Origin: Vectrevirus T147P1
Sequence record: OZ035788.1
DNA length: 43,705 bases
Reading direction: 5' to 3' (one strand)
Positions 14,077 to 39,245 of the stretch are shown here, in pieces. Below the pieces are notes generated by a model, which was given only the letters and a program-made list of their open reading frames with translations, searched no databases and was not told the origin of the DNA. Both the position numbers and the translations under genes were made by a program. How positions within the stretch are numbered: the stretch's first letter is position 1; the number at the start of each line of letters is the position of its first letter.

Positions 14077-14092
14077 GTCTCACATGTGAGAC
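14077..14092. repeat. 16-bp palindrome GTCTCACATGTGAGAC (copy 1)
   Basis: Perfect palindrome immediately upstream of the promoter at 14095. Confidence 0.8.
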
Positions 14093-14094
14093 TT

Positions 14095-14117
14095 ATTTAC
14101 CGGACACTATAGGATAG
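14095..14117 (+). promoter_or_regulatory. phage RNAP promoter
   Basis: ATTTACCGGACACTATAGGATAG. Confidence 0.7.
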
Positions 14118-14158
14118 CCGTCGGAGACGGGAAAGAAGGGAAGATAAAGGATATAAAA

Positions 14159-14215
14159 GGAAGTAATAGGTATTAAAGGTTATATAGGTTTACCTAGGAA
14201 TACCTATTACCTTCC
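14159..14215. repeat. AT-rich element with 16-bp inverted repeat arms (copy B); candidate replication origin core
   Basis: GGAAGTAATAGGTATT ... AATACCTATTACCTTCC arms flank AGGTTATATAGGT; lies between two phage promoters just downstream of the RNAP gene, the layout of the T7 primary origin. Confidence 0.45.
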
Positions 14216-14258
14216 TCCTTCCTCTTATTACTACTTAGAGGAAGGGCAGACCTAAGTT

Positions 14259-14274
14259 GTCTCACATGTGAGAC
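14259..14274. repeat. 16-bp palindrome GTCTCACATGTGAGAC (copy 2)
   Basis: Perfect palindrome immediately upstream of the promoter at 14280. Confidence 0.8.
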
Positions 14275-14279
14275 TTCGT

Positions 14280-14302
14280 ATTTACCGGACAGTATAGATA
14301 AG
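14280..14302 (+). promoter_or_regulatory. phage RNAP promoter (variant, G at -5)
   Basis: ATTTACCGGACAGTATAGATAAG. Confidence 0.5.
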
Positions 14303-14459
14303 ACTAACTTACTTTGGAGATTTAACCATGCGTAACTTTGAGAAGATGACCCGTAAAGCTAACCGTTTTGACATGGAAGAAGGGCAGACTAAAGGCAAGA
14401 AGCTTAATAAACCTGTCCGCGACCGTGCATCTAAACGCGCTGCGTGGGAGTTCTAAGTT

Positions 14460-14681
14460 ATGGCTAAATACAGGATTAAGACGTGTTTAAACAATCAGGG
14501 GCATGAGTGCTATATAGTACAGCGTAAGGTTCTACTGGGCTTGCTGTGGGTTACTTGTATGATGCCTATTGGCTACACTGACACTGAAGCCATCTTTGGC
14601 ACGGAAGATGATGCCTACAGATTCATCGCTAAACGTAGAAAAGTAGAACGTTATAAACACAGAATTATTAAGGTAAACTAA
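14460..14681 (+). CDS. hypothetical protein
   Basis: 73-aa ORF with GGGAG RBS; stop overlaps the primase start (TAATG). Confidence 0.55.
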   Translation: MAKYRIKTCLNNQGHECYIVQRKVLLGLLWVTCMMPIGYTDTEAIFGTEDDAYRFIAKRRKVERYKHRIIKVN

Positions 14682-16669
14682 TGGCTATAATCAATAACAT
14701 TCAATGCCCTGCTTGTGCTAAGAACGGGCATGATAAATCCTCTAATCATCTCATGATATTTGATGATGGTGCTGGCTACTGTAATCGTGGACACTTTCAT
14801 GATAATGGTAGACCTTACTACCACAAGCCGGAAGGTGGCATCGAGATAACCGAGTTACCTATTACTGGCAATATCAAATATACACCTTCTCAATTCAAAG
14901 AAATGGAGAAGGAAGGGAAGATAAGCGACCCTAAATTACGTGCCATCGCACTAGGTGGTATGCGTATGAAAGACCGTTGGGAGGTCATGAATGAGCAAGA
15001 AAGGGCAGACCAAGAAGCAGAGTGGAAACTTGATGTTGAATGGTTCCTCACGCTTAAGCGTAAGAACCTTGTTTCCCGACACATTCGCGGCGACATTTGC
15101 GCATTGTATGATGTACGTGTCGGACACGATGAAGAGGGTAGAGTCTCGCGGCATTACTATCCACGCTTCGAGAAAGGTGAGCTAGTAGGAGCTAAGTGTC
15201 GCACATTACCTAAAGACTTTAAGTTTGGTCATTTAGGTAAACTCTTTGGTATGCAAGACCTTTTCGGGATGAATACTTTGTCTCACGTGTTAGACAAGGG
15301 AAGACGAAAGGACTGCTTGCTCATTGTCGGCGGCGAACTGGATGCACTAGCAGCGCAGCAGATGCTCCTTGATTCTGCCAAGGGTACTAAGTGGGAGGGT
15401 CAGCCATACCATGTATGGTCTGTCAACAAAGGCGAGTCTTGCCTTGAAGAGATAGTGCAGAACCGTGAGCATATCGCCCAATTCAAGAAGATTATATGGG
15501 GTTTTGATGGAGATGAGGTAGGGCAGAAGCAGAATCAGCAAGCGGCTCGCCTGTTTCCTGGCAAATCCTATATCCTTGAATACCCCTCTGGTTGCAAAGA
15601 TGCTAACAAGGCATTGATGGCTGGCAAGGCTAAAGAATTTGTAGATGCATGGTTTAATGCCAAGTCATCTGATGAAGTCTTTGGTAGCCAGATTAAATCT
15701 ATTGCATCTCAAAGGGATAAGCTCAAGGCTGCACGTCCAGAGCAAGGACTATCATGGCCTTGGCCTAAGCTGAACAAGGTAACGCTAGGTATTCGTAAGA
15801 ATCAGCTTATCATTGTAGGTGCAGGGTCTGGTGTAGGTAAGACTGAGTTCCTTCGTGAAGTAGTTAAGCACCTCATTGAAGAACACGGTGAATCTGTAGG
15901 CATCATTTCTACAGAAGACCCGATGGTCAAGGTGTCCCGTGCTTTTATCGGCAAGTGGATTGATAAGCGTATTGAGTTACCGCCAACCAACGACCCGAAA
16001 GAAGATGGATACCGTGAGGTGTTCGACTACACCGAGGAAGAAGCTAACGCCGCCATTGATTATGTAGCTGATACAGGTAAGCTGTTTGTGGCTGACCTAG
16101 AGGGTGACTATTCGATGGAAAAGGTAGAGCAAACTTGCCTAGAGTTTGAGGCTATGGGCATTTCTAATATCATCATTGATAACTTAACGGGGATTAAATT
16201 AGATGAGCGTGCTTTTGGTGGGAAGGTTGGTGCACTTGATGAATGCGTCAAGCGGATTGGTACTATCAAAGACCGACACCCGGTTACTATATTCCTTGTA
16301 TCACACCTTACACGTCCTCCGGCAAACCGTACCCAACACGAAGAAGGTGGCGAAGTTATCCTTTCTGACTTCCGAGGCTCAGGCGCTATCGGATTCTGGG
16401 CATCTTACGCCTTGGGGATTGAGCGTAATACAAGAGCTGAAACGCTTGACGAAAGGACTACCACGTACATCTCATGTGTCAAAGACCGCGACCAAGGTAT
16501 CTGGACTGGAACCAAGGTCATGCTTAAGGGTGACATTCAAACCGGACGTTTAATGGAACCACAAGCCCGTACTAAGTCATTTGATACAGGTGAAGCAAGG
16601 CAACAAGAAGTGCCGGATTTACCGGACACTATAGAAGAGACAACCTTTGACGATGAACAGGAGTTTTAA
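14681..16669 (+). CDS. DNA primase/helicase (T7 gp4-like)
   Basis: 662 aa; N-terminal Cys4 zinc ribbon (CPACAKNGHDKSSNH...CNRGHFH), Walker A GAGSGVGKT of the DnaB-like helicase domain, acidic C-terminus ending in F. Confidence 0.95.
   Translation: MAIINNIQCPACAKNGHDKSSNHLMIFDDGAGYCNRGHFHDNGRPYYHKPEGGIEITELPITGNIKYTPSQFKEMEKEGKISDPKLRAIALGGMRMKDRWEVMNEQERADQEAEWKLDVEWFLTLKRKNLVSRHIRGDICALYDVRVGHDEEGRVSRHYYPRFEKGELVGAKCRTLPKDFKFGHLGKLFGMQDLFGMNTLSHVLDKGRRKDCLLIVGGELDALAAQQMLLDSAKGTKWEGQPYHVWSVNKGESCLEEIVQNREHIAQFKKIIWGFDGDEVGQKQNQQAARLFPGKSYILEYPSGCKDANKALMAGKAKEFVDAWFNAKSSDEVFGSQIKSIASQRDKLKAARPEQGLSWPWPKLNKVTLGIRKNQLIIVGAGSGVGKTEFLREVVKHLIEEHGESVGIISTEDPMVKVSRAFIGKWIDKRIELPPTNDPKEDGYREVFDYTEEEANAAIDYVADTGKLFVADLEGDYSMEKVEQTCLEFEAMGISNIIIDNLTGIKLDERAFGGKVGALDECVKRIGTIKDRHPVTIFLVSHLTRPPANRTQHEEGGEVILSDFRGSGAIGFWASYALGIERNTRAETLDERTTTYISCVKDRDQGIWTGTKVMLKGDIQTGRLMEPQARTKSFDTGEARQQEVPDLPDTIEETTFDDEQEF
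16617..16639 (+). promoter_or_regulatory. phage RNAP promoter inside the 3' end of the primase/helicase gene
   Basis: ATTTACCGGACACTATAGAAGAG. Confidence 0.7.
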
Positions 16670-16830
16670 TGGAAATTATTAAACCAGTATTGAATATCGG
16701 TATTGAGATCCTATTCATGCTTGTGATCGCAGATTATGCTGCACGATATGGATTCAAGAAAGCTGTGAAACTTATCGTTGCATCTGGTTTTCTTATGTCA
16801 ATGTTCTTTATTGTAACACGCCTTATCTAG
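16669..16830 (+). CDS. small two-TMD membrane protein
   Basis: 53 aa; AGGAG RBS; TAATG coupling to the helicase stop. Confidence 0.45.
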   Translation: MEIIKPVLNIGIEILFMLVIADYAARYGFKKAVKLIVASGFLMSMFFIVTRLI

Positions 16831-16847
16831 TGTATTTATCAGGGCTT

Positions 16848-16863
16848 GTCTCACATGTGAGAC
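16848..16863. repeat. 16-bp palindrome GTCTCACATGTGAGAC (copy 3)
   Basis: Embedded in an extended inverted repeat GGGCTTGTCTCACA / TGTGAGACAGGCTC. Confidence 0.8.
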
Positions 16864-16896
16864 AGGCTCTTATTAAGTACATTAAATAACTGGAGA

Positions 16897-17625
16897 TTGA
16901 TTATGTATAAATTAGTATTGAATGTAGGTGATTATGTTCGTAACATCAATGAAGCCTCACGTCGTTATCGTTGCCGTGGTGTAGTGGCTCGTGTAAGTGA
17001 GAACATGTATCATGTAGAATATGAGGATGGTATTAAGGCTTCTTACCACAAGAAAACAGCACATAAATATCTTGAAAAGATTGTAGAGATAAACAATCAA
17101 TGTAAGTGCATACATGATGAGGTTTGCGATAAGTGTGCACGTCAGGCAGTTAAAGCCTTTACCTTTGCTCAACGTTATGGTTCTATGTATGGCGCTGGTA
17201 ACAAGACCCTTGCAGAAGCAGCTTGGAAGACATTACAGTTTGAGCGTTCAAATGGACGACGCACCACAATTAAGAAAGAGCGCCGCAATGTAATCACTGG
17301 TAAGACTCAAAGTGAAATGATTAAGAAATGTGGCACTGCACTAGGTGTTACGCAGTTTAACACTCGTGCTCTTGGTAAATCCACAGGACAAGCTATGGTA
17401 AAGATTGGCGAAGCCATGATGCATCCAAATGTACCTGTACGAATCAGGGATGTTGACCATGCAATCACAGAACACAGTACGCAACGACGTGTAATTAATA
17501 AGCATTTTGCCGACACTATAGAAGGTATTATTCGTAAGCAAGGGTTGAAAGGTCTTCACATCTTGAATGATGAAGAGTTACTGTACCTCCCTATTGTTAC
17601 TGAAGAAACCTACGTGAATATCTAA
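16897..17625 (+). CDS. hypothetical protein
   Basis: 242-aa ORF with GGAGA RBS between helicase and DNA polymerase. Confidence 0.7.
   Translation: MIMYKLVLNVGDYVRNINEASRRYRCRGVVARVSENMYHVEYEDGIKASYHKKTAHKYLEKIVEINNQCKCIHDEVCDKCARQAVKAFTFAQRYGSMYGAGNKTLAEAAWKTLQFERSNGRRTTIKKERRNVITGKTQSEMIKKCGTALGVTQFNTRALGKSTGQAMVKIGEAMMHPNVPVRIRDVDHAITEHSTQRRVINKHFADTIEGIIRKQGLKGLHILNDEELLYLPIVTEETYVNI
17504..17526 (+). promoter_or_regulatory. phage RNAP promoter-like site inside a coding sequence
   Basis: ATTTTGCCGACACTATAGAAGGT; core GACACTATAGAAG conserved. Confidence 0.5.
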
Positions 17626-17635
17626 GGAGTTAATC

Positions 17636-17854
17636 ATGACTAAAGTATTAATTTATATGCGTGGACCTCATAAATGCTATGCAGTTGTAGCACCAAATGG
17701 TGTTAAGCCCTATAGTACTTCAAAAGGATTGGCATTAATAGGTGCTAGTAGTAGTGCAAGTTTCCAAATGGAACTTTTTGGTCATTGGAATGAAAGGCAA
17801 TTCCGTGAGGATTTTAAAGTCATTGGCAGCTTCATGGTGAAACATGCAGAATAA
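17636..17854 (+). CDS. hypothetical protein
   Basis: 72-aa ORF with AAGGAG RBS. Confidence 0.55.
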   Translation: MTKVLIYMRGPHKCYAVVAPNGVKPYSTSKGLALIGASSSASFQMELFGHWNERQFREDFKVIGSFMVKHAE

Positions 17855-17867
17855 ACATAGTCTTAAA

Positions 17868-18020
17868 ATGTTCGATGGTCATGAAGACCTGCAAGCCAAG
17901 ATTACTAACCAAGCCTTCCTGTTTGCACAGTTAACTATGGCTGAAGCAAAGAAGAATAGCCTGACGCGTGAACAGGTTATCAAGGAAAGTGAAGTGAAAC
18001 GTAAGATTCGCAGTCGATAA
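17868..18020 (+). CDS. small hypothetical protein
   Basis: 50-aa ORF MFDGHEDLQAKITNQAF...; no clear RBS. Confidence 0.25.
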   Translation: MFDGHEDLQAKITNQAFLFAQLTMAEAKKNSLTREQVIKESEVKRKIRSR

Positions 18021-18030
18021 GTCAAGGGTT

Positions 18031-18046
18031 GTCTCACACGTGAGAC
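18031..18046. repeat. 16-bp palindrome variant GTCTCACACGTGAGAC (copy 4)
   Basis: Centre dinucleotide differs; arms conserved; extended stem GGTTGTCTCAC / GTGAGACAGCC. Confidence 0.8.
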
Positions 18047-18077
18047 AGCCTTTCATCATATTGATTGGAGGTGCATT

Positions 18078-18185
18078 ATGCCACGTGATTATGATTCTGA
18101 TTGGGACTATTATGACTCAATGAATCCAAAACCCGAACGTTCAGATGATTACTACGAAACAGAGGCAATGTATGAAGACTATTGA
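18078..18185 (+). CDS. small acidic Tyr/Asp-rich peptide
   Basis: 35 aa MPRDYDSDWDYYDSMNPKPERSDDYYETEAMYEDY; GGAGG RBS 7 nt upstream; overlaps the DNA polymerase start. Confidence 0.4.
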   Translation: MPRDYDSDWDYYDSMNPKPERSDDYYETEAMYEDY

Positions 18186-20718
18186 TTGGAAGAAGGAGGC
18201 AGAAGGTCGTATCCTCGTGATGGATGCGGAAGCTAAAGGACTCCTTGACGCTATCCGATATGGACACCGTGAAGATGTGCATATCATTTGCTGCATGGAT
18301 TTGCTTACTACCGAGGAGTTTCTCTTCTTTGACCCGTATGAGATGCGTGACCCTGAAGCAAGAGAACGCCTGAAGGAATGGGAAGGTCATCAAGATGGAA
18401 CCTTGGTTGACGGTGTTAACTTCCTGAAGCACTGTGAGGCTATTGTGTCGCAGAACTTCCTAGGGTATGACGGTCTTCTCTTTGAGAAAGCATTCCCTGA
18501 TATTTGGAAAGGCTTTAACTATACCGAGAAGCGCGGTAAGGGCAGACTCCGTGCTGACCTGTGTCCTATCCGTGTTGTAGATACGCTGGTGATGAGTCGT
18601 CTGCTAAACCCAGATAGACGCCTTCCTCCGCAAGCATATGCCAAAGGCATGGGTAACGTCGCCCCTCACTCAATTGAGGCGCACGGCATCCGTATAGGCC
18701 GCTATAAACCAGAGAATGAGGACTGGTCTAAACTAACTGACCACATGGTTCACCGTGTACGTGAAGACGTGGCAATTGGTCGTGACCTTTTCCTATGGCT
18801 TTACAACGGAGAGTGGACGGAGCACAAACGCCGTGGCGTGAATAAACGTACTGGCCTAGGTATTGAGACAGCCTTCCACATGGAGTCCATTGTGGCGCTG
18901 GAGATGAGCCGTCAGGCCGAGCGCGGGTTCCGTCTGGACATCGACAAGGCTTTGGCCCGATGCGAAGAATTGGACGCTAAGATTGACGAGACAGTCGCAG
19001 CGTTCCGCCCTCACATGCCTATGCGTATCAAGTCTAAACCTTTTAAACCGGAAGAAAAGAATGAAGTATGCCAACGCGCAAATGAGTATGGAGCTAGCAA
19101 CAATATACCTACTGTCCTTGACCCCTCACACTTTCTTCATGCCGAGAGACGAGGAGATCGCAAGACAGTATGGAGTGTCACTACTAAGTCTGGTGATTGG
19201 TCGGCTAGTGTCAAGAAAGACTTTCCTCACCTTAGAGGAAACCGTAATGACACGCCAAGCATCAAGTGGATTGGCGCTTACTCGCCTGTTACTTTCGAAG
19301 AGATTCCCTTGGGTAACAGGGATACAGTTAAGCAAGTGCTCTATGATTATGGATGGAAAGGTGTTGAATTTAACGATACCGAGCAAGCGCATCTCGATGA
19401 GCACGGAGTGTTACCCAAACCTTGGAGTGGTAAGATAAATGAAAAGTCCCTTACTTTATGGCAAGAAAGAGCCGCACGTGAAGGTAAAACAGTCCCTGAT
19501 TGGTGCTTGGGTATCGCTGCATGGTACATACTCGTATCCCGTCGTGGTCAGATACTCAACCGTGGTGACGTTGAAGCCTTCAACGAGAAGGGGACGTGGC
19601 CCTCGCAGGCTGGTGTACGAAAGTGTCGCGGCCTTGTACCTGTAGCATTCAACAAGGAGCTAGGAATCAATGCGCAGCAATACTACGAGAGGTACGGATG
19701 TTGGCCTACGTCTGATAAAGATGACGGAGAGTGGCGTGTTCCAGCTGTTGCTATTAGCATTGGCACTTCTACGTTCCGTATGCGTCATCGTAACGTGGTT
19801 AATGTTCCTGCCCGTGGCTTGTATCCTTTACGTGATTTATTCATAGCAGGGAAAGGCAAGCTAATCCTTGGTTGTGACGGTGCAGGTCTTGAACTGCGTG
19901 TCCTGTCTCACTTCATGAATGACCCTGAGTACCAAGAGATTGTACTGCACGGTGATATTCATACGCATAACCAGATGAAGGCTGGTCTTCCTAAGCGTGA
20001 TATGGCGAAGACGTTTATATACGCCTTCCTCTATGGCTCTGGTATAGCCAACCTTGCAGCAGTATGTGGTGTTACTGAGGAAGAAATGAAGGAAGTTGTG
20101 GCAAGATTCGAGATTGAACTGCCGTCTCTTGCACGTCTTCGTGAGAATGTTATCGCACAAGGTAACAAGTTTGGCTACCTGCAAGCACCTGATGGGCATT
20201 GGGGTCGCATCCGCATGTCTGGTGGTGAACTTAAAGAGCACACGATGCTTAACGTATTACTCCAGATGACTGGCTCTTTGTGTATGAAATATGCATTAGT
20301 CAAGGCATTTGCAGTAATGCGCAAGGAAGGTGTAGCCTTGGATGCTATGGGAAATCCTTGTGGTGTGGCTAACGTGCATGATGAAATCCAGATGGAAGTC
20401 CCTGAAGAGGAGGTCTTGTATCTTAACTACGACCTACCTTTCACCTTAGATGGGTTCGAAACAGAGAAGGCTGCCGTGAAAGCAGTATTCGATGCAGAGG
20501 AGAAACGTGTTCATGTGGATTCTGAAGGACGTATGTGGTCTGCTGCAAACCTCGTTAGTGTTGATGCTGATGCTGGTGTATTGCATTGCCAGCGCCGTTA
20601 TCACCGTGCAGGTCATATCATTGCCGACGCCATGACTTGGGCAGGGCAGTATCTGAAGATGCGTTGCCCGATGGCAGGCGAATATAAGATTGGCGCAAGC
20701 TGGAAGGAAACACACTGA
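18172..20718 (+). CDS. DNA polymerase, family A (T7 gp5-like)
   Basis: About 848 aa; N-terminal exonuclease-like ILVMDAEAKGL; polymerase motifs including HDEIQMEVPEE; start chosen at the ATG after GAGG (ORF opens at 18145). Confidence 0.93.
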   Translation: MKTIDWKKEAEGRILVMDAEAKGLLDAIRYGHREDVHIICCMDLLTTEEFLFFDPYEMRDPEARERLKEWEGHQDGTLVDGVNFLKHCEAIVSQNFLGYDGLLFEKAFPDIWKGFNYTEKRGKGRLRADLCPIRVVDTLVMSRLLNPDRRLPPQAYAKGMGNVAPHSIEAHGIRIGRYKPENEDWSKLTDHMVHRVREDVAIGRDLFLWLYNGEWTEHKRRGVNKRTGLGIETAFHMESIVALEMSRQAERGFRLDIDKALARCEELDAKIDETVAAFRPHMPMRIKSKPFKPEEKNEVCQRANEYGASNNIPTVLDPSHFLHAERRGDRKTVWSVTTKSGDWSASVKKDFPHLRGNRNDTPSIKWIGAYSPVTFEEIPLGNRDTVKQVLYDYGWKGVEFNDTEQAHLDEHGVLPKPWSGKINEKSLTLWQERAAREGKTVPDWCLGIAAWYILVSRRGQILNRGDVEAFNEKGTWPSQAGVRKCRGLVPVAFNKELGINAQQYYERYGCWPTSDKDDGEWRVPAVAISIGTSTFRMRHRNVVNVPARGLYPLRDLFIAGKGKLILGCDGAGLELRVLSHFMNDPEYQEIVLHGDIHTHNQMKAGLPKRDMAKTFIYAFLYGSGIANLAAVCGVTEEEMKEVVARFEIELPSLARLRENVIAQGNKFGYLQAPDGHWGRIRMSGGELKEHTMLNVLLQMTGSLCMKYALVKAFAVMRKEGVALDAMGNPCGVANVHDEIQMEVPEEEVLYLNYDLPFTLDGFETEKAAVKAVFDAEEKRVHVDSEGRMWSAANLVSVDADAGVLHCQRRYHRAGHIIADAMTWAGQYLKMRCPMAGEYKIGASWKETH

Positions 20719-20834
20719 TGGATAAGCTTGACATTGTTTGCCTATTCTTCACTTTCTTTCTTACACTCCTTATGCTTGCTTGTTATGGGAGTATGAGACT
20801 AGATATACCTGATGAAGAAGAGGGTTACGACTAA
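20718..20834 (+). CDS. small membrane peptide
   Basis: 38 aa, hydrophobic core; ATG overlaps the polymerase stop. Confidence 0.3.
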   Translation: MDKLDIVCLFFTFFLTLLMLACYGSMRLDIPDEEEGYD

Positions 20835-20932
20835 TGCAAACTGCTTTTATTATTCTTGGTATCATAGTATTTATGGTAGTACTCTGGGCCTTCTCTGGCA
20901 TTGACCCGGATTGTGATGGTAACTACGACTGA
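20834..20932 (+). CDS. small membrane peptide
   Basis: 32 aa MQTAFIILGIIVFMVVLWAF...; TAATG coupling. Confidence 0.3.
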   Translation: MQTAFIILGIIVFMVVLWAFSGIDPDCDGNYD

Positions 20933-20989
20933 GTTATACTCAAGGTCACTTACGAGTGGCCTTTATGAATAACTTAACTGGAGAGTATT

Positions 20990-21250
20990 ATGATTAAATC
21001 ACAGAAGTATTTCTCAACTAAAGATCGTAAGGTAGGTTTTGAAATCAAAGTTTGGGAAGACGGACACATTACTATTATTTACGAAGGTAAAGGTTCTAAT
21101 GGTATGATGCTACGTAGATGCCGTACATTCACAAAGAAAGAATGTATGCATATGTCTGAATGCATGTTTCTTTACATCATTGCTGATGATATTAAAGGTA
21201 TGAAGCTAATTGTATCTCTACCTTTAATACCTAAATCTTTGTTAGGTTGA
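20990..21250 (+). CDS. hypothetical protein
   Basis: 86-aa ORF with GGAGAG RBS. Confidence 0.55.
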   Translation: MIKSQKYFSTKDRKVGFEIKVWEDGHITIIYEGKGSNGMMLRRCRTFTKKECMHMSECMFLYIIADDIKGMKLIVSLPLIPKSLLG

Positions 21251-21272
21251 TTTATTGGACACTATAGAAGGA
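21250..21272 (+). promoter_or_regulatory. phage RNAP promoter
   Basis: ATTTATTGGACACTATAGAAGGA. Confidence 0.7.
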
Positions 21273-21285
21273 AAGCCTAGACAAT

Positions 21286-21791: not shown

Positions 21792-22598
21792 ATGGCACGT
21801 GGTGATTTTGATTTTGGTGCTCAGGTTACTAAAGCTGAAGGTAAGGTTTTTAAGAACCCTGAAGTTGGTGATCATGAAGCAGTAATCTCTGGCATCATTC
21901 ATGTGGGTTCCTTCCAAGATATCTTTAAGAAAGGTAATACCACTGAAGTTAAGAAGCCAGCAAACTTTGTTCTTGTTAAGATTGTACTGATGGGTGACGA
22001 TGACAAGAACGAAGATGATTCTCGCATGGAACAGTGGATGGCTGTGCCTCTGAAGTCTGGTGACAAGGCAACCTTGACTAAGTTCCTGAATGCAGTTGAC
22101 CCTAAAGAGCTGCTTGGTGGTTTCGATGACTTCATCGGTGAATGCCTGACTGCAACTATGGTTGGCTCTGGCGACAAGAATGATGATGGTACTTTCAAGT
22201 ATGTTAACTGGAAAGGCTTTGGCGGTATGCCTGATAAGTTGAAGAAGCTTGTACTGGCTCAGGTAGAAGAGGAAGGTCTGTCTATGACAGGTCATATCAC
22301 CTTCGACAAGCTGACCAAAGAAATCCTTGATGACATCCCAGCTAACTTGGTGCGTCAATACTTCCTTAATGAAACACCTCGTGGTAAGAACCTGTCTGTT
22401 GCTGGTTCTCACGTAGAAGCAATCATTAAAGCTGCTCGTGAAGAAGACCCAGAGTGGAAGAAAGCCAAGAAGAAAGATGACGAGGATGCTACTCCAGCTA
22501 ATCGTAAACCTCTGGATACTGGTGAGTCTGTTCCACAGGAAGTACCTGAAGCAGAAGATACTCCTGCACCGGAGATGGATGAGGACGCGGAATATTAA
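21792..22598 (+). CDS. putative ssDNA-binding protein (gp2.5-like by architecture)
   Basis: 268 aa; acidic C-terminal tail ending in aromatic residue (PEMDEDAEY); codon usage of a highly expressed gene; product call is by analogy, not sequence identity. Confidence 0.55.
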   Translation: MARGDFDFGAQVTKAEGKVFKNPEVGDHEAVISGIIHVGSFQDIFKKGNTTEVKKPANFVLVKIVLMGDDDKNEDDSRMEQWMAVPLKSGDKATLTKFLNAVDPKELLGGFDDFIGECLTATMVGSGDKNDDGTFKYVNWKGFGGMPDKLKKLVLAQVEEEGLSMTGHITFDKLTKEILDDIPANLVRQYFLNETPRGKNLSVAGSHVEAIIKAAREEDPEWKKAKKKDDEDATPANRKPLDTGESVPQEVPEAEDTPAPEMDEDAEY

Positions 22599-22827: not shown

Positions 22828-22843
22828 GTCTCACGTGTGAGAC
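22828..22843. repeat. 16-bp palindrome variant GTCTCACGTGTGAGAC (copy 5)
   Basis: Reverse complement of the copy-4 variant; about 15 nt upstream of the promoter at 22859. Confidence 0.8.
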
Positions 22844-22858
22844 AAATCGGTGTCCGGT

Positions 22859-22881
22859 ATTTACTGGACACTATAGAAGAG
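22859..22881 (+). promoter_or_regulatory. phage RNAP promoter
   Basis: ATTTACTGGACACTATAGAAGAG, exact consensus. Confidence 0.8.
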
Positions 22882-22930: not shown

Positions 22931-23311
22931 ATGTTCAAGATTGAAACTATCGTAAACCGTGTTGTTAAAGGTGCTGCTCTGGTATCCGTTGAGTCTTTCA
23001 TTATCGTCGATGAAGCTGATCAACTGGTAGCTGGTACTAAGGCTTACGATACCCGTGAAGAAGCTCAGGCTAAGATTGACAGCATGGGTAACTTCGCTGC
23101 TGGTCTGGAGTTCGCTCGCGCTTGCTTCCCTGAGCAGGCTGACAAAGCTCAGATTGGTAAGGCTAATATCGTAGCTGAATATCTGGATTGGATTGCTGCT
23201 GGTAAGCCGGTGAAAGAAGTTAAGTCTGCTGAAGAAGCTGAAGCTCAGGCAGTAGAAGAAGAAGTAGCTGCACCGGTAGATGCTCCGGTAAGCGAAGAGG
23301 AAGAGTTTTAA
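22931..23311 (+). CDS. abundant small acidic protein of unknown function
   Basis: 126 aa; ends VSEEEEF; strongly host-optimised codons; own consensus promoter and a downstream hairpin. Confidence 0.7.
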   Translation: MFKIETIVNRVVKGAALVSVESFIIVDEADQLVAGTKAYDTREEAQAKIDSMGNFAAGLEFARACFPEQADKAQIGKANIVAEYLDWIAAGKPVKEVKSAEEAEAQAVEEEVAAPVDAPVSEEEEF

Positions 23312-32324: not shown

Positions 32325-32332
32325 TACCTATG

Positions 32333-32366
32333 CCCTATCTACCTTGCGTAGGTAGGGTTATTTTTG
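32333..32366 (+). terminator. terminator after the capsid gene (T-phi-like)
   Basis: CCCTATCTA-CCTTGCG-TAGGTAGGG hairpin followed by TTATTTTTG. Confidence 0.6.
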
Positions 32367-32378
32367 TTAGGAGGATTC

Positions 32379-33116
32379 ATGCCTGTAATTAGACAAACCA
32401 GTAAAGTAGGACACATGATGGAAGATGTGGCCTTCCAGATTATTGATAGTAAACTTGAAGCGGTCAACCTGTGTATGCGAGCTATTGGTCGTGAGGGTGC
32501 GGATTCTCTCGACTCAGGGGACTTGGACGCAGAGGATGCAAGCAAGATGATCGACATCGTATCCCAGAGGTTCCAGTACAACAAAGGGGGTGGCTGGTGG
32601 TTCAATCGTGAACCAAACTGGCAACTTGCACCAGACACTAACGGTGAAGTTAATTTACCTAACAACTGCCTAGCAGTATTGCAGTGTTATGCTTTAGGTG
32701 AAAAGAAAGTACCTATGACTATGCGAGCAGGTAAGCTCTACTCTACATGGAGTCATACCTTTGATATGCGTAAGCATGTGAATGCTAATGGTATGATTCG
32801 TCTTACCTTACTTACCTTACTTCCATATGAGCATCTACCTACTAGTGTAATGCAGGCTATTGCCTATCAAGCTGCTGTAGAGTTTATTGTGTCTAAGGAT
32901 GCAGATCGGACTAAGCTAGCCACTGCACAGCAGATTGCCACTCAGCTTCTAATGGATGTGCAATCAGAACAAATGTCACAAAAGCGATTGAATATGCTTG
33001 TACATAATCCTACGCAGCGTCAGTTCGGTATTATGGCAGGTGGTTCTCAGAATGTACCTGCTTACTCTCATTCACCTTATGAGAGTTGGGCGCTCCGTCC
33101 GTGGGAGGATCGTTAA
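32379..33116 (+). CDS. tail tubular protein A (gp11-like)
   Basis: About 245 aa from the ATG after AGGAGG (ORF opens at 32364); position between capsid and tube B. Confidence 0.8.
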   Translation: MPVIRQTSKVGHMMEDVAFQIIDSKLEAVNLCMRAIGREGADSLDSGDLDAEDASKMIDIVSQRFQYNKGGGWWFNREPNWQLAPDTNGEVNLPNNCLAVLQCYALGEKKVPMTMRAGKLYSTWSHTFDMRKHVNANGMIRLTLLTLLPYEHLPTSVMQAIAYQAAVEFIVSKDADRTKLATAQQIATQLLMDVQSEQMSQKRLNMLVHNPTQRQFGIMAGGSQNVPAYSHSPYESWALRPWEDR

Positions 33117-35518
33117 TGGAAGTACAAGGTTCATTAGGTAGACAAATCCAAGGGATTAGCCAGCAGCCGCCAGCGGTACGCTTGGATGGTCAGTGCACAG
33201 CTATGGTTAATATGATACCTGATGTAGTGAATGGTACTCAATCACGCATGGGTACAACTCATATTGCAAAGATACTTGATGCGGGGACTGATGACATGGC
33301 TACTCATCATTATCGCAGAGGTGATGGTGATGAAGAGTATTTCTTCACGTTGAAGAAAGGACAAGTTCCTGAGATATTTGATAAGTATGGGCGCAAATGT
33401 AATGTGACTTCACAAGATGCACCTATGACTTACTTAACTGAAGTAGTCAACCCAAGGGAAGATGTGCAATTTATGACTATTGCAGATGTAACCTTTATGC
33501 TTAATCGAAGAAAGGTAGTTAAAGCTCGTACTGATAAATCACCAAAGGTTGGAAATAAGGCGATTGTCTTCTGCGCCTATGGCCAATATGGGACTACTTA
33601 TAAAATTATAATTGATGGCAATGTAGCAGCTACACGTACCACCCCTGACGGTGGTGAAGCGGGTCAAGTTGTAAATATAAGAACAGAAGACATTACAAAC
33701 CACCTTTATGATAGTTTACAGCAATGGAGTGGTATTAATGCCTACAACATCCAGAAAGATGGAACAAGTATCTTTATTGAAAAGAAAGATGGTAGCTCTT
33801 TTAATATTACTACAGAAGATGGTGCAAAAGGTAAGGACTTAGTAGCCATAAAGAACCGTGTAGCCTCTACCGACCTTCTACCCTCCCGTGCACCTGAAGG
33901 TTACAAAGTGCAAGTATGGCCTACTGGAAGTAAACCGGAGTCACGTTATTGGCTGGAAGCAGAGCCAAAAGAGGGGAATTTAGTATCATGGCAAGAGACA
34001 GTAGCGGCGGATGTTTTACTTGGCTTTGATAAAGGGACCATGCCGTATATTATTGAGCGTACAGGTATCATTGATGGTATTGCTCAATTTAAGATTAGGC
34101 AGGGTGATTGGGAAGACCGCAAGGTGGGGGATGACCTCACTAACCCTATGCCGTCTTTCATTGATGAAGAAGTTCCTCAGACAATTGGCGGGATGTTCAT
34201 GGTGCAGAACCGTTTATGCTTTACAGCAGGTGAAGCTGTCATTGCATCACGCACTTCCTACTTCTTTGATTTCTTTCGTTATACGGTTATCTCTGCATTG
34301 GCAACTGACCCATTTGATATTTTCTCAGATGCTAGTGAAGTCTACCAGCTAAAACATGCAGTGACCTTAGATGGCGCTACCGTGTTGTTCTCTGATAAGT
34401 CACAATTCATACTGCCAGGCGATAAGCCTTTAGAGAAGTCAAATGCACTGCTTAAGCCTGTTACAACATTTGAAGTGAACAATAAAGTGAAGCCAGTAGT
34501 AACTGGTGAATCGGTAATGTTTGCCACTAATGATGGTTCTTACTCTGGTGTACGAGAGTTCTATACAGACTCTTATAGTGACACTAAGAAGGCACAAGCA
34601 ATCACAAGTCATGTGAATAAACTCATCGAAGGTAACATTACCAACATGGCAGCAAGCACCAATGTCAACAGGCTACTTGTCACTACCGATAAGTATCGTA
34701 ACATAATCTACTGCTACGATTGGTTATGGCAAGGAACAGACCGTGTACAATCAGCATGGCATATATGGAAGTGGCCTATAGGTACAAAGGTGCGAGGTAT
34801 GTTTTATTCTGGTGAATTACTTTACCTGCTCCTTGAGAGAGGAGATGGCGTATATCTGGAGAAGATGGACATGGGTGATGCACTAACCTACGGTTTGAAT
34901 GACCGCATCAGAATGGATAGGCAAGCAGAGTTAGTCTTCAAGTATTTTAAAGCAGAAGATGAATGGGTGTCTGAACCTCTTCCTTGGACCCCTACTAACC
35001 CAGAACTTTTGGATTGCATCTTAATAGAAGGATGGGATTCATATATTGGTGGTTCTTTCCTATTCAAATACAACCCCGGTGATAACACCTTGTCTACAAC
35101 CTTTGATATGCATGATGATAGCCACGTAAAAGCGAAGGTTATTGTTGGTCAGATTTACCCTCAAGAGTTTGAACCAACACCTGTAGTTATCAGAGATAGG
35201 CAAGACCGTGTATCCTATATTGATGTACCTGTTGTGGGATTAGTTCACCTTAATCTTGATATGTATCCTGATTTCTCCGTGGAGGTTAAGAATGTGAAGA
35301 GTGGTAAAGTACGCAGGGTGCTAGCGTCAAACCGTATAGGTGGTGCTCTCAACAATACAGTAGGTTATGTTGAACCAAGAGAAGGTGTCTTCAGATTCCC
35401 ACTGAGAGCTAAGAGTACGGATGCTGTTTATCGTATTATTGTAGAATCACCTCACACATTCCAGCTTCGTGATATTGAGTGGGAAGGGAGCTACAATCCA
35501 ACCAAAAGGAGGGTCTAA
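33116..35518 (+). CDS. tail tubular protein B (gp12-like)
   Basis: About 800 aa; TAATG coupling to tube A (ORF opens at 33086); size and position as T7 gp12. Confidence 0.85.
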   Translation: MEVQGSLGRQIQGISQQPPAVRLDGQCTAMVNMIPDVVNGTQSRMGTTHIAKILDAGTDDMATHHYRRGDGDEEYFFTLKKGQVPEIFDKYGRKCNVTSQDAPMTYLTEVVNPREDVQFMTIADVTFMLNRRKVVKARTDKSPKVGNKAIVFCAYGQYGTTYKIIIDGNVAATRTTPDGGEAGQVVNIRTEDITNHLYDSLQQWSGINAYNIQKDGTSIFIEKKDGSSFNITTEDGAKGKDLVAIKNRVASTDLLPSRAPEGYKVQVWPTGSKPESRYWLEAEPKEGNLVSWQETVAADVLLGFDKGTMPYIIERTGIIDGIAQFKIRQGDWEDRKVGDDLTNPMPSFIDEEVPQTIGGMFMVQNRLCFTAGEAVIASRTSYFFDFFRYTVISALATDPFDIFSDASEVYQLKHAVTLDGATVLFSDKSQFILPGDKPLEKSNALLKPVTTFEVNNKVKPVVTGESVMFATNDGSYSGVREFYTDSYSDTKKAQAITSHVNKLIEGNITNMAASTNVNRLLVTTDKYRNIIYCYDWLWQGTDRVQSAWHIWKWPIGTKVRGMFYSGELLYLLLERGDGVYLEKMDMGDALTYGLNDRIRMDRQAELVFKYFKAEDEWVSEPLPWTPTNPELLDCILIEGWDSYIGGSFLFKYNPGDNTLSTTFDMHDDSHVKAKVIVGQIYPQEFEPTPVVIRDRQDRVSYIDVPVVGLVHLNLDMYPDFSVEVKNVKSGKVRRVLASNRIGGALNNTVGYVEPREGVFRFPLRAKSTDAVYRIIVESPHTFQLRDIEWEGSYNPTKRRV

Positions 35519-36264
35519 TGGCTATAGGTTCAGCCGTTATGGCTGGTATGTCTTCTATTGGTAGTATGTTTGCAGGTAGCGGTGCAGCCGCCGCTGCTGG
35601 TGGTACTGCCGCAGCAGCAGGAGGGACAGCCGCCGCAGGTGGCGGAGGTTTGCTTGGCTCCCTTGGTAGTTTCTTAGGAGGTACTTCTGCTGGCTTCTCT
35701 AATGCAGGACTGCTTAGTGCAGGTATGCAAGGTCTTGGTCTTCTAGGCAATCTTTTTGGTGGAAGTGATGAAGCCAAAGCTATGAAGAAAGCTCAGGAGG
35801 AGCAATGGCGGCAGCAGTTAATTGCTACACAAGAAGCATATAAGACAGTGGCAGATGCAGAACGCTCTGCTGCTAAACAGTATCATGCGGATGCAATAAG
35901 CAATCAGGCTTCACTGCTACAGCAAAGAGCGCAGGTTGCACTACTTGCAGGTGCAACTGGCACTGGTGGTAACTCTGTATCTTCTATGCTGAATGACTTA
36001 GCAGCAGAGGGCGGGAGGAACCAGAGTACAATTATTGATAACTATGAGAATCAGAAGATTAACTTCACCAATCAGCTTAAGTCTATCCAGCGAGGTGGAC
36101 AGATGCAGATGCGTGAGTTTAAGAAGCCTTCTGCCGTGAGCACCTTGGTGCAAGGTATACCGAGTCTGGCATCTGCCTATGTAACAGGTAGTAAGTCCGG
36201 CATGGCTTTAGGTAAAGCTTTAACTGATTCTCGTACATATTCATCTGGAACAAGAGGTATTTAA
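35518..36264 (+). CDS. internal virion protein, Gly/Ala-rich (gp13/14-like)
   Basis: About 248 aa; TAATG coupling (ORF opens at 35479); low-complexity G/A-rich N-terminus. Confidence 0.7.
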   Translation: MAIGSAVMAGMSSIGSMFAGSGAAAAAGGTAAAAGGTAAAGGGGLLGSLGSFLGGTSAGFSNAGLLSAGMQGLGLLGNLFGGSDEAKAMKKAQEEQWRQQLIATQEAYKTVADAERSAAKQYHADAISNQASLLQQRAQVALLAGATGTGGNSVSSMLNDLAAEGGRNQSTIIDNYENQKINFTNQLKSIQRGGQMQMREFKKPSAVSTLVQGIPSLASAYVTGSKSGMALGKALTDSRTYSSGTRGI

Positions 36265-39212
36265 TGGCAATTGAGCGACAAGCAGTACAAGGTCTGCCAC
36301 AAGTGCAGGCCACTTCTCCTAATGTCATGACCTTTGCACCTCAGCGAGTTGGAGGTGTGGAGGCTGGCGTAGCTTCTACCTCCGGTAGTCGATTTATCGA
36401 AGACCTTATTCGAGCAGCCAGTAGTGTAGCTGATGTAACCACTGGTATCCTTAATCAAAAGATTGAGGAAGATAAGGTTGTTCAAATGGAACGGGCATAT
36501 AACGGATTAATGCCTTCTGAGGATGCAACTCGTGGTGGCGCTCGTGCTAACATGCTTGTCAAAGCTCAACTGCTAGCTAATGATGAAGCAGCACGAATGA
36601 AAGACATGGCTACTCGTTTCCAAGGAACGGATGACGAGTGGACACAACTTATGGTTGACTCTCGTAATGAGATGCAGAATAAGCTGTTCCAGCAATACCC
36701 TGAGTTGCAAGGTGACAAAGATACTATGCGTATGGTCACTAATGTCTTCCAAGAACAGCAGCCTCAGATTTGGGCTACACGAACCAAGCATAAACTTGAC
36801 CGTGAACAAGCAGACCGTGAGGATACCTTTGACGGGCGAGTGGCTTCTACTTGGGATTCTAATATTGACCCTGAAGCCTCTGGTTATGCTTTACAGGAAC
36901 GAATCCGCGAAGGTCTTACTCAAGGATTACTACCCGAACAGATGCACAAGAAGTTAGTCCAGCGAGCAATTTCACTTGCACAAGGCGGTGATGTTAGCAT
37001 GGCTGAAGCCCTGAAGTATGTGAAGGACGATAAGGGTGTTTCTGTTTATGCTAAGAATCCACAGCTTATCACAGCCATCACTAGTGGTAATGCAGTTTGG
37101 GCTAGGAATAATGTAGCTGATGTAACTCGTATGTCTTTCGAAGTTAAAGAATCCTACCTTGCAGGTGATTTAACTGATGAAGAATTGTTGGAACGAGCAC
37201 AGCACATTAATAATCTGACAGGTAACTCTGTCTTCTCTAATCCAGAACTAGAGGCACTGATGCGCCAACGGGCTAAGCAGAATGCAGAGCTAGGTGCAAT
37301 GCAGGATATGCGACGTGAGCTTTACTCCGACCGCCTGACTGGCTTCCAAGGTAAGAGTGATAAAGAGAAGAAGGCTTACATTGATGTTATCAAACGGGAT
37401 AGCCAACTTTATGCAGACCAGCAAATCAAACAACGTGGCTTGGACCCTTACAGTCAAGAGGCTGAAGCTATTCGTGGTGCAGTGGAAGTGCAGCGTCTGC
37501 AATTCATGAATTCTAAAGGCTTAGTGGATGATACCTTTGAGTCTCGTATCAAAGCCATGGAATCTATGCTATCGCCTGAGCACTTTGCCAAGGGCGAACC
37601 ACAGGAGTTGATGACTATTCGCCAGTTGTGGGAACAGTTGCCAGAAGAGAGCCGAGGTGTCTTTGGTGACACGGTGAATGGCTACATGGATAACTACAAC
37701 ACTGCACTACAAATGGGAGAGACACCTTTGCAGGCTGCAAGGTTTGCGCGTGAAGCACAGCAGAAATTCTCTCGTACTGAGAAGGAAACCAAGAAGTTCA
37801 ACTCAGCTATTGGAGATGCACTGGATGAGGTATCTGGTGCTGGCTGGTTTGATGGTAAAACCGAAGTGTCAGACTTAGGTAAAGCTATTGCGGAAGAAGA
37901 GTTACGAGCTAAGGCCAATATGTTGTGGTCTAGTGGTATGCGTAACATGGATTCTATCAAGAAGGCTTTAATTACTTGGGGCAATAAACGCTACACTCAA
38001 ACAGAGGATGCAAAGACTTCCGGTGGCTATTTCATTAAAGGTGATTACACTTCTGCATCTGATATGCTTATGTCAGTTGGGAAAGGCGTAAACCCTACCG
38101 ATGTGCCTCTGGCGCTTGGTAGGTATGTAGAAACACAGATGCCAGAATTGAAGAAGGAGCTTCAAGAGTGGGAAACTAAAGATGATATATACATTGATTA
38201 CAATGAACAGAAAGGAACTTTTGTGATTCGTGCTGGTGCAGCAGGTCGCCCTCTTTCTGGAGTAATCCCTGTAACCTCTTTAGATACTACTTCACTACTA
38301 GATTCTGCCTATCAGAAGAAAGTAGAGGAACGAGATAAAGGCGAGTATGTTCACCCGTATCGTACAGATATTGGTGCACAAGAGCCTATGCCGGCTAAAC
38401 CAACTGCCAAAGATATTGGTAAATTTGGACTAGCTAACTTCCTCATGTCTTCTGCTTTTGCTTCTGGTGAGAATCTGCCTTCTAACTTCGAGATTAACTA
38501 TCGAGGTAATATGCAACAATTCTATGACAAGCTAGCTATGGATGAGAATAAAGATAAAGTTGGCTTTAATAAGGCAACTGGAACCTTTACTCCATATAAA
38601 GACGCTCACGGTGAGTCTATCGGTTACGGTCATTTCTTAACGGAAGAAGAGAAGCGAAACGGGTATATTAAGATTGGCGATGAACTAGTTCCCTATCGAG
38701 GGTCTATGTCTCAGCTTACAGAGAGCAAGGCTCGCGCTCTTATGGAGCAAGATGCTAAGAAGCATGTGCCTCCTACTCGTGACTGGAAGATTCCGTTTGA
38801 CCAGATGCATCCTGCACAGCAACGTGGCTTGATGGATTTAACCTACAATTTAGGTAAAGGTGGAATCCAGAACTCACCGCGTGCTCTTGCTGCATTCAAA
38901 GCTGGTAAGCTTACGGAAGGCTTTATCGAAATGCTGGGCACTGCATCAAGTGAAGGTAAGCGTATTCCTGGCCTACTGAAGCGACGCGCTGAGGCATACA
39001 ATATGGCATCTGCTGGTGGTGTGCCTAAGATTACCGAAGTGGAGACTCGTGAAGATGGCTCCATGTGGGTTAGGTTTGGTGGACCTATGCCAGCAGGTTC
39101 TGTCTCGGCATGGACTCATAAACGTATTGGCGCGGATGGTTGGTATCAGGTTTATGAGGCTGCACCTACCAAGTTAGCTAAAGGTTCTAAGGTAGGTAAA
39201 GTTAAGTTGTAG
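36264..39212 (+). CDS. internal virion protein with C-terminal lysozyme-like domain
   Basis: 982 aa; C-terminal segment HGESIGYGHFLTEEEK...DLTYNLGKGG resembles the T4-lysozyme-type muramidase fold; position of T7 gp15. Confidence 0.8.
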   Translation: MAIERQAVQGLPQVQATSPNVMTFAPQRVGGVEAGVASTSGSRFIEDLIRAASSVADVTTGILNQKIEEDKVVQMERAYNGLMPSEDATRGGARANMLVKAQLLANDEAARMKDMATRFQGTDDEWTQLMVDSRNEMQNKLFQQYPELQGDKDTMRMVTNVFQEQQPQIWATRTKHKLDREQADREDTFDGRVASTWDSNIDPEASGYALQERIREGLTQGLLPEQMHKKLVQRAISLAQGGDVSMAEALKYVKDDKGVSVYAKNPQLITAITSGNAVWARNNVADVTRMSFEVKESYLAGDLTDEELLERAQHINNLTGNSVFSNPELEALMRQRAKQNAELGAMQDMRRELYSDRLTGFQGKSDKEKKAYIDVIKRDSQLYADQQIKQRGLDPYSQEAEAIRGAVEVQRLQFMNSKGLVDDTFESRIKAMESMLSPEHFAKGEPQELMTIRQLWEQLPEESRGVFGDTVNGYMDNYNTALQMGETPLQAARFAREAQQKFSRTEKETKKFNSAIGDALDEVSGAGWFDGKTEVSDLGKAIAEEELRAKANMLWSSGMRNMDSIKKALITWGNKRYTQTEDAKTSGGYFIKGDYTSASDMLMSVGKGVNPTDVPLALGRYVETQMPELKKELQEWETKDDIYIDYNEQKGTFVIRAGAAGRPLSGVIPVTSLDTTSLLDSAYQKKVEERDKGEYVHPYRTDIGAQEPMPAKPTAKDIGKFGLANFLMSSAFASGENLPSNFEINYRGNMQQFYDKLAMDENKDKVGFNKATGTFTPYKDAHGESIGYGHFLTEEEKRNGYIKIGDELVPYRGSMSQLTESKARALMEQDAKKHVPPTRDWKIPFDQMHPAQQRGLMDLTYNLGKGGIQNSPRALAAFKAGKLTEGFIEMLGTASSEGKRIPGLLKRRAEAYNMASAGGVPKITEVETREDGSMWVRFGGPMPAGSVSAWTHKRIGADGWYQVYEAAPTKLAKGSKVGKVKL

Positions 39213-39229
39213 TACCTAACTCAAGGCTT

Positions 39230-39245
39230 GTCTCACATGTGAGAC
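39230..39245. repeat. 16-bp palindrome GTCTCACATGTGAGAC (copy 6)
   Basis: Extended inverted repeat GGCTTGTCTCACA / TGTGAGACAGGTC between two internal virion protein genes. Confidence 0.8.

Follow-up and report, generated by a model that had tools for sequence, protein, structure and literature searches.

Dispersed palindromes of Vectrevirus T147P1: a candidate sequence-specific element and its association with RNase III-type hairpins

The 43,705 nt sequence of Vectrevirus T147P1 (OZ035788.1; the whole stretch analysed is referred to here as the window) carries a short palindrome, GTCTCAC-NN-GTGAGAC, at dispersed positions, nearly all of them between genes. The question raised by these copies is at which level they are read: as hairpins in RNA, for example as sites of cleavage by RNase III, or as duplex DNA by a protein that recognises their sequence. 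The explanation that best accounts for the observations is a composite one, in which a portable palindrome with a reader of its own has also come to cap three RNase III-type hairpins. It is held tentatively, at somewhat less than an even chance.

The window is a circularly permuted Vectrevirus genome of the K1E/K1-5 type (Autographiviridae, Molineuxvirinae), with all of its genes on the + strand. Its RNA polymerase region is 99.5% identical to that of Vectrevirus T147P9 and 93–96% identical to those of many E. coli K1 phages, and comparison with K1E places the left end of the genome at about position 8008. The relatives compared were K1E, K1-5 and SP6 (the GenBank records of which carry CDS annotation only), IMG/VR contigs L131–L134, Proteus phage Pm5460, Erwinia phage S2, Vibrio phage MGD2 and T7.

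Copies in the window and in related phages

All six exact copies listed in the original prediction, which was made from the sequence alone, are present (S1, S2 and S4–S7 in Table 1), as is the one-mismatch copy S0. The number expected is zero, and none of 100 dinucleotide shuffles of the window contained the exact motif. Allowing one mismatch yields S0 and a further copy, S3, bringing the total to eight. As predicted, the arms of the exact copies are invariant and their centres are AT, AC or GT. Seven of the eight copies are non-coding, in a genome of which 9.6% is non-coding by the K1E annotation (binomial P ~6e-7). The family had been described as confined to intergenic regions, which is correct for the exact copies and overlooks S3, situated within the primase/helicase ORF. 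The codons of S3 read TCT CAC GTG TTA GAC, and since GTGAGAC at this place would create a TGA stop, S3 is as near to a palindrome as the reading frame permits. Isolated half-sites are scarce in the window (one observed, ~5.4 expected).

Table 1. Positions of the palindrome copies and of the RNase III-type hairpins in the window
Feature	Position	Strand	Description
S0	8639–8654		One-mismatch copy, GTCTCACATGTTAGAC; ~630 bp from the left end of the genome
S1	14077–14092		Exact, bare 7 bp palindrome; 2 nt 5′ of promoter 14095
S2	14259–14274		Exact, bare palindrome; 5 nt 5′ of phage promoter 14280
S3	15280–15295		One-mismatch copy, GTCTCACGTGTTAGAC; within primase/helicase ORF 14681–16669
S4	16848–16863	+	Exact; apex of two-tier hairpin, between genes 9.5 and 10
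S4 hairpin	16823–16889	+	13 bp upper stem, internal loop, 11 bp lower stem; −30.6 kcal/mol, z −7.1
S5	18031–18046	+	Exact; apex of two-tier hairpin, in the interval between gene 11 and the next gene
S5 hairpin	18011–18069	+	Compensatory double changes in 9 of 24 pairs; conserved G-U pairs
S6	22828–22843		Exact, bare; 1 nt past the gene 17 stop codon
S7	39230–39245	+	Exact; apex of two-tier hairpin, between genes 35 and 36
S7 hairpin	39210–39268	+	Flanks ACUCAAGG...CUUUAUGAU agree with the T7 R-site consensus
Palindrome-free RNase III-type hairpin	5922–5969	+	25.5 bits
Palindrome-free RNase III-type hairpin	9585–9633	+	15.4 bits; before ocr, compare T7 R0.3
Palindrome-free RNase III-type hairpin	10322–10371	+	19.5 bits; 5′ of gene 6
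Palindrome-free RNase III-type hairpin	11307–11359	+	19.4 bits; just 5′ of the RNA polymerase gene, compare T7 R1
Palindrome-free RNase III-type hairpin	20930–20979	+	ACUCAAGGUCACUUACGAGUGGCCUUUAUGAAUA; 48.7 bits, E 3e-10
Decayed relic	12791–12806		CGCTAACGTGCTGGAT; 4 mismatches to the frame, within the RNA polymerase gene

Extended flanking complementarity with G-U-compatible changes, which had been ascribed to several copies, is found at S4, S5 and S7; these three share ~30 nt and are paralogous in appearance. The bare copies S0, S1, S2 and S6 have no extended stem, no lower stem and no covarying flanks, and S3 has a short extension only, of four flanking pairs around its central mismatch. 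Folded as RNA, S0 gives −2.7 kcal/mol, S3 with its flanks −8.5 kcal/mol and the perfect bare copies about −7 to −8 kcal/mol.

What the bare copies share is a position directly 5′ of a promoter, of phage type for S1, S2 and S6 and of sigma-70 type for the left-end copy, S0. The three phage promoters concerned (14095, 14280 and 22859) start within the predicted 2–15 nt of a copy (measured gaps 2, 5 and 15 nt), and the one at 22859 drives gene 18. About nine other promoter-like phage sites in the window are without a copy, so that 3 of ~12 have one. S1 begins 43 nt past the early terminator hairpin (14011–14034), which does not use the motif, in line with the original prediction. S0 precedes the first early promoter of sigma-70 type (TTGACA at 8689) by 34 nt.

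Copies occupy the same syntenic positions in at least five named genera (Vectrevirus, Zindervirus, Acadevirus, Eracentumvirus and Kaohsiungvirus) as well as in unclassified IMG/VR contigs. K1E and K1-5 carry the same set of copies as the window, and the motif of Erwinia S2 is exactly that of the window. SP6 has no exact copy, and all eight orthologous positions are occupied by GTCTAAC-NN-GTTGGAC or GTCCAAC-NN-GTTGGAC; one extra copy is located in its nucleotide kinase gene. The GTCCAAC/GTTGGAC form is also that of L131–L134 (RNA polymerase ~85% identical). In Proteus Pm5460 it appears with a 3 nt centre (GTCCAAC-NNN-GTTGGAC), apart from the left-end copy, where the centre is 2 nt. Vibrio MGD2 (Colwellvirinae; RNA polymerase 43% identical) has ~9 copies of GTCTCAC-NNN-GTGAGAC, with one in each terminal repeat, and more IMG/VR contigs of 42–48 kb have the 3 nt form in the same contexts. 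No such palindrome was found in the T7 genome.

Across these phages, arm positions 4 and 5 shift in concert within each lineage (U:A/C:G, C:G/A:U or U:G/A:U), and no other position of the core varies, even among phages whose flanks cannot be aligned. All relatives examined retain S0 in its place, 11–34 nt 5′ of the first sigma-70-type early promoter. The arrangement at S6 is kept in SP6, Pm5460, Erwinia S2 and Vibrio MGD2, and in MGD2 there are, in addition, bare copies directly 5′ of ribosome-binding sites. Only at its S5 copy (9570–9585 in K1-5 coordinates) does K1-5 have the SP6 form of the palindrome, GTCCAAC..GTTGGAC; because the gene downstream is SP6-like, a mosaic boundary lies right at this hairpin.

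Capped and palindrome-free RNase III-type hairpins

On the + strand, S4, S5 and S7 each form the top of a hairpin with an upper stem of 13–14 bp, a small internal loop and a lower stem of 9–11 bp (−26 to −31 kcal/mol, z −3.8 to −7.1), the palindrome providing the uppermost 7 bp. The − strand folds are much weaker (−19.8 kcal/mol for S4) because the G-U pairs turn into C-A. In alignments spanning Vectrevirus, Zindervirus and Acadevirus, compensatory double changes are seen in four pairs of S4, nine of S5 and two of S7, together with invariant G-U pairs.

A covariance model was built from seven T7 RNase III sites and searched against the window. The coordinates of the T7 sites are those reportedly given by Dunn and Studier in 1983, and canonical hairpins do sit there. 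The T7 R sites share the pattern ACUCAAGG-stem-CCUUUAU^GAU, and the model recovers T7 R6.5, which was absent from its training set. All matches in the window are on the + strand, and those at the palindrome are S7 (31.6 bits; site sequence ACUCAAGGCUU-palindrome-AGGUCUUUAUGAU), S5 (25.7 bits) and S4 (19.0 bits, spanning 16828–16886), with E values of 1e-5 to 0.03. The SP6 and Pm5460 orthologues of S7 score 44–47 bits. No match to the bare copies was found at E up to 10.

The idea that selection acts on a hairpin rather than on coding content is borne out for S4, S5 and S7, by compensatory changes, conserved G-U pairs and agreement with the T7 model. Processing by RNase III at these three capped hairpins is probable, and by analogy with T7 the cuts are predicted near 16873/16874 (CUCUUAU^UAAG), 18056/18057 (CCUUUCAU^CAU) and 39255/39256.

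At least five RNase III-type hairpins of the window lack the palindrome (Table 1). The one at 20930, between the DNA polymerase gene and the next, is near-identical to the T7 consensus ACUCAAGGUCACU..AGUGGCCUUUAUGA, and its SP6 orthologue (12224–12273) likewise scores 48.7 bits. At the position of S7, Erwinia S2 has a plain RNase III-type hairpin with a 9 bp stem and no palindrome, and in MGD2 an RNase III-type hairpin is followed, after 8 nt, by a separate palindrome hairpin and then by a Shine-Dalgarno sequence. Since hairpins without the palindrome exist, and bare copies without a lower stem also exist, the palindrome is separable from RNase III. RNase III sites, one of the functions originally proposed for the family, suit the three capped hairpins; as an account of the palindrome itself, RNase III processing is not supported.

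The persistence of the hairpins is of interest in its own right, as T7-type RNase III sites reach the SP6 group almost unchanged despite RNA polymerases that are ~32% identical. The palindrome-free hairpins of the early region (before ocr, gene 6 and the RNA polymerase gene) mirror R0.3 and R1 of T7. Two near-consensus or consensus phage promoters (16617–16637 and 17504–17524), within the 3′ ends of the primase/helicase gene and gene 10, are each 230–530 nt 5′ of a capped RNase III-type hairpin. The early terminator hairpin (GGCCAUUCCUUCGGGAGUGGCC followed by a U-run) resembles the upper stem of T7 R1.1 and gives a weak match to the model (11.9 bits).

Candidate readers of the palindrome

The core of the palindrome is identical across a divergence over which the adjoining stems were rewritten by compensation. 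Its centre also follows a rule: in this phage family it is R-Y (AT, AC, GT, GC) or R-N-Y, with a single exception (AGA, in MGD2), the other non-RY centres in the collection coming from unrelated contigs only. This rule is two-fold symmetric, and because the centre cannot pair in so small a loop, it is not explained by pairing. Symmetry that reaches beyond the positions paired in a hairpin would be expected of two half-sites bound by a dimeric protein, and it is seen here.

Some copies are imperfectly paired. At position 5 of S0, the two arms switch between C and A independently of each other. The haplotypes at Vectrevirus loci (BLAST orthologues) include GTCTCAC/GTTAGAC, GTCTAAC/GTTAGAC, GTCTAAC/GTGAGAC and GTCTAAT/GTGAGAC, and one of the five haplotypes is fully paired. 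Unpaired arms are seen at S0 and S3; the remaining copies are almost always perfectly paired.

Copies within genes of the relatives had been named in advance as an observation that would count against a function of the family. Such copies do exist, in early and middle genes (RNA polymerase, primase, ligase, kinase and gene 10), and their positions are conserved. A copy in the RNA polymerase gene occurs at the same spot (within 1.5 nt, and with no indel) in Erwinia S2 (GTG TCT CAC GTG TTA GAC), L131 (CAG TCC AAC GTG TTG GAC) and MGD2 (CGT GTC TCA CGC TGT GAG ACA), where MGD2 uses another frame and encodes different amino acids; the decayed relic at 12791 (Table 1) is what the window retains of this copy. 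In SP6 and L131–L134 the primase-gene copy changes in step with the intergenic copies, with a His to Asn replacement in SP6 alongside a synonymous Leu change. In Erwinia S2 the primase gene and its downstream neighbour follow each other without a gap, and a copy sits within that neighbour. These in-gene copies, at conserved positions and apparently under selection at the nucleotide level, argue for function rather than against it. Syntenic retention over two subfamilies, overriding protein sequence, implies a sequence-specific reader.

It is quite possible, if short of probable, that the palindrome is read as duplex DNA by a dimeric protein, probably encoded by the phage. The element would then be a portable, sequence-specific site of two-fold symmetry, with the half-site GTC-Y-M-AC-R and the two halves either abutting or 1 bp apart, belonging to the SP6-like (Molineuxvirinae) and related Colwellvirinae phages. 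The lineage differences at positions 4–5 and in the spacer would fit co-evolution of site and protein. The palindrome, rather than serving as a determinant for RNase III, may sit wherever a compact genome tolerates it, as its symmetry and contexts suggest: at the apex of a hairpin, within the spacer that precedes a promoter or a Shine-Dalgarno sequence, or among codons that permit it. If T7 is a guide, host RNase III would make a single cut at each of S4, S5 and S7, in the 3′ strand of the internal loop (at about CUUUAU^GAU); the upstream and downstream mRNAs would thereby be separated, and the upstream one would carry the capped hairpin at its 3′ terminus.

The bound site could plausibly serve as a roadblock or boundary to read-through transcription where early and middle units end, in the manner of mycobacteriophage stoperators or of mTERF with the related mitochondrial RNA polymerase. 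The full proposal, of a dimeric DNA-binding protein with 8–10 palindromic operators that act as roadblocks or boundaries for the phage RNA polymerase in SP6-like and Colwell-like Autographiviridae, is unlikely as it stands. If it were true, operators in the RNA polymerase gene, in the primase gene and before the first early promoter would take on the task, performed by lysozyme in T7, of shutting off early and middle genes. To our knowledge, lytic phages of these two groups are thought to be regulated by their RNA polymerases and by RNA processing only. The endolysin of the window (2972–3316) is of Peptidase_M15_3 type, not the Amidase_2 type of T7 lysozyme; therefore the phage probably lacks the lysozyme-RNA polymerase shut-off of class II genes known from T7.

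Several observations weigh against a DNA-binding reader. A protein operator was among the original proposals and is favoured by the symmetry evidence, but scans of ~20 small early and middle proteins with Pfam, PHROGs and NCBIfam detected no DNA-binding domain, and PDB sequence searches gave nothing significant. The predicted structure of the gene 6 protein has a mean pLDDT of 52, and the gene 17 protein has two homologues only. The gene 18 protein, which has a weak match to TraR (E 0.96), was considered and dropped, its acidic tail (...SEEEEF) being typical of replisome partners. Pm5460 mixes five copies with a 3 nt centre and one with a 2 nt centre, a mixture that suits a rigid dimer poorly and a hairpin well. 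Six of the nine SP6 copies have a sense-strand U-G pair (GTCTAAC/GTTGGAC), against one with C-A; such a bias is what an RNA hairpin would predict, although it could also stem from selection on the RNase III hairpins or from a C-to-T bias of the non-template strand. Several MGD2 copies abut Shine-Dalgarno sequences, a typical RNA-level context. The spacing to promoters varies over 0–17 nt and 3 of ~12 promoters are involved, so the palindrome is not a classical promoter operator, and no covariation of the motif with promoter sequence was seen. The positions of the RNase III cuts are themselves taken over from T7, with T7 site coordinates checked only by the canonical hairpins present there. Sites of host factors such as CRP, SlmA, MatP and DeoR, also considered and set aside, seem to resemble only permuted halves of the motif.

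The same observations give substance to an alternative in which the element is read at the RNA level only, which is possible rather than probable and only a little less likely than the DNA reading. A + strand hairpin would be recognised by host RNase III, another RNA-binding protein or an endoribonuclease; the capped versions would be cut by RNase III, in-gene copies would down-regulate early and middle mRNAs, and the bare versions would be hairpins that protect 3′ or 5′ ends, or weak pause or termination hairpins, for read-through transcripts 5′ of promoters and ribosome-binding sites. S4, S5 and S7 are demonstrably parts of selected RNA hairpins, and to the U-G bias of SP6 and the side-by-side 2 nt and 3 nt centres of Pm5460 can be added that no in-gene copy falls outside the early and middle genes. 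Copies are always 5′ of promoters, never 3′, and therefore at the 3′ end of the upstream unit. In MGD2, besides the copies directly 5′ of Shine-Dalgarno sequences, one closely follows an RNase III-type site. A rough scan for hairpins with a T-rich tail picks up S1 and S2, and the Pm5460 record labels one such hairpin a predicted terminator.

Set against these points, a stem of 6–7 bp with a loop of 2–4 nt (about −7 kcal/mol) is far below the size of an RNase III substrate. Pairing alone would permit drift, as in the adjoining stems, and the core is nonetheless invariant; nor does pairing account for the symmetric R-Y/R-N-Y rule. The left-end and in-gene copies of Vectrevirus have a central C-U or A-G mismatch that disrupts the hairpin, and these copies are conserved all the same. 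S0, which precedes every promoter, and S1, placed after the early terminator and before the first phage promoter, would both be poorly transcribed. There is also no consistent U-tract, so that the proposed pause or termination hairpin is not supported in the sense of a class I intrinsic terminator: only S1 and S2 pass the lax scan, their T-rich tail being the AT-rich upstream part of the promoter itself, while S0, S3 and S6 have no U-tract and the bare stems amount to about −7 kcal/mol. The class II pause/termination signal of T7 (ATCTGTT type) is absent from the palindrome, and the separate TATCTGTT at 8313 is not part of it.

A role of the palindrome as a hairpin or cruciform in DNA is improbable. 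Here the copies would act in replication or recombination, as origin, priming or loading marks, or as hotspots cut by endonuclease VII, a homologue of which is encoded by the phage. The primary origin of T7 and its left-end secondary origin provide a model for the layout: S1, a promoter, a structured AT-rich leader of 150 nt, S2 and a second promoter follow the RNA polymerase gene in an arrangement resembling the primary origin, with S1 and S2 flanking the origin-like region, and S0 resembles the secondary origin at the left end of T7. The mosaic boundary is marked by the S5 copy of K1-5. In vibriophage N4, palindromes are sensed as single-strand hairpins by Lamassu DdmABC (PMC11707656). The mismatched copies S0 and S3 would not extrude, however, the arms are short, most copies are distant from any origin-like region, and nothing links endonuclease VII to sequence specificity. 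A primase recognition site was also considered. The T7 primase recognises GTC and that of SP6 GCA, and neither fits the motif.

A selfish or neutral palindromic repeat, spread by insertion or gene conversion, or a microhomology linker for module exchange, is quite improbable: the same 16–17 nt do occur in many contexts, hairpin apices included, S4, S5 and S7 look paralogous and a mosaic boundary falls at S5 of K1-5, but the copies are retained in synteny over two subfamilies with unalignable flanks, those within genes arose by substitution and override the amino acid sequence, and within a lineage the copies change together. The Pfam, PHROGs and NCBIfam scans turned up no transposase or RAYT-like gene in the window, and an origin of the in-gene copies by in-frame insertion was rejected, as there is no indel relative to orthologues without a copy.

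Neighbouring features and comparison with known systems

Beside S6 there is a second hairpin (22849–22872, GGTGTCCGG TATTTA CTGGACACT), in which promoter 22859 contributes its specificity region as the 3′ arm. Covariation of the 5′ arm with promoter sequence is seen in SP6, L131–L134 and Pm5460, with double changes in six pairs, which suggests a conserved 'anti-promoter' structure. Between the two promoters past the RNA polymerase gene, a non-coding stretch of ~150 nt (14112–14258), purine-rich and then pyrimidine-rich, can form a long imperfect hairpin (−44.9 kcal/mol, z −2.8), and its layout is like that of the T7 primary replication origin. Towards the left end, TATCTGTT at 8313–8320 is the core of the class II pause/termination signal of T7 RNA polymerase. 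It occurs once on the + strand, a count that is not significant by itself, ~70 nt past the expected terminal repeat and ~320 nt 5′ of S0.

The proteins of gene 16 (21792–22598) and gene 18 (22931–23311) have acidic tails of which the last residue is aromatic (...EMDEDAEY and ...SEEEEF), and their MGD2 homologues end in ...DEEQEF and ...AEDEEF. Similar acidic tails are found on gp2.5 and gp4 of T7, so that genes 16 and 18 probably encode a single-strand DNA-binding protein and another replisome partner.

The phages of this group are the source of SP6 and K1E RNA polymerase technology and of K1-capsule phage therapy. Identification of the reader could reveal how early and middle genes are shut off, or landmarks of replication or packaging. 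No Rfam family matched any part of the window at E up to 1. No description of the motif variants was found in open-access full text, a search that did not take in the original genome papers of SP6, K1-5 and K1E, which may mention these hairpins, for example as terminators or RNase III sites.

Among known systems, the RNase III sites of T7 (R0.3, R0.5, R1, R1.1, R1.3, R4.7, R6.5 and R18.5) are the closest match to S4, S5 and S7, which are likewise on the + strand, intergenic, near gene ends and two-tiered, with flanks of the S7 type (ACUCAAGG...CUUUAUGAU) and an internal loop C/UAU. They differ in the upper stem, of 13–14 bp compared with 9–10 bp in T7, and in its top 7 bp, which here are the invariant palindrome that T7 lacks.

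In mycobacteriophage L5 and other Cluster A phages, the repressor blocks elongation from sites known as stoperators, most of them located in short gaps between genes where units end. The palindrome resembles them as a short protein-type site in many copies, sometimes tolerated elsewhere. Stoperators are asymmetric and orientation-dependent, and the phages that carry them are temperate and have a known repressor, whereas the site described here is symmetric and the phage lytic. The PeSL cassettes of T4-type phages combine an early promoter and a stem-loop at module boundaries. Stem-loop and promoter coincide at module boundaries in both cases, with a possible role in modular exchange, but the PeSL stem-loops are not one invariant sequence and follow host-type early promoters, and here the association is with 3 of ~12 phage promoters.

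Another parallel is offered by the T7-like vibriophage N4/VIB04, in which dispersed and highly similar palindromes trigger Lamassu DdmABC (Robins et al. 2024, PMC11707656). The main text of that paper does not contain GTCTCAC/GTGAGAC, and its subject is a different phage lineage and the sensing of palindromes by the host, not their role for the phage (PMC11707656). As in the present case, the N4/VIB04 palindromes are dispersed in an Autographiviridae genome, and some are like T7 RNase III sites while others are not (PMC11707656). Given this trigger, the palindromes of the SP6-like phages may likewise be an obligatory weak point open to host defences.

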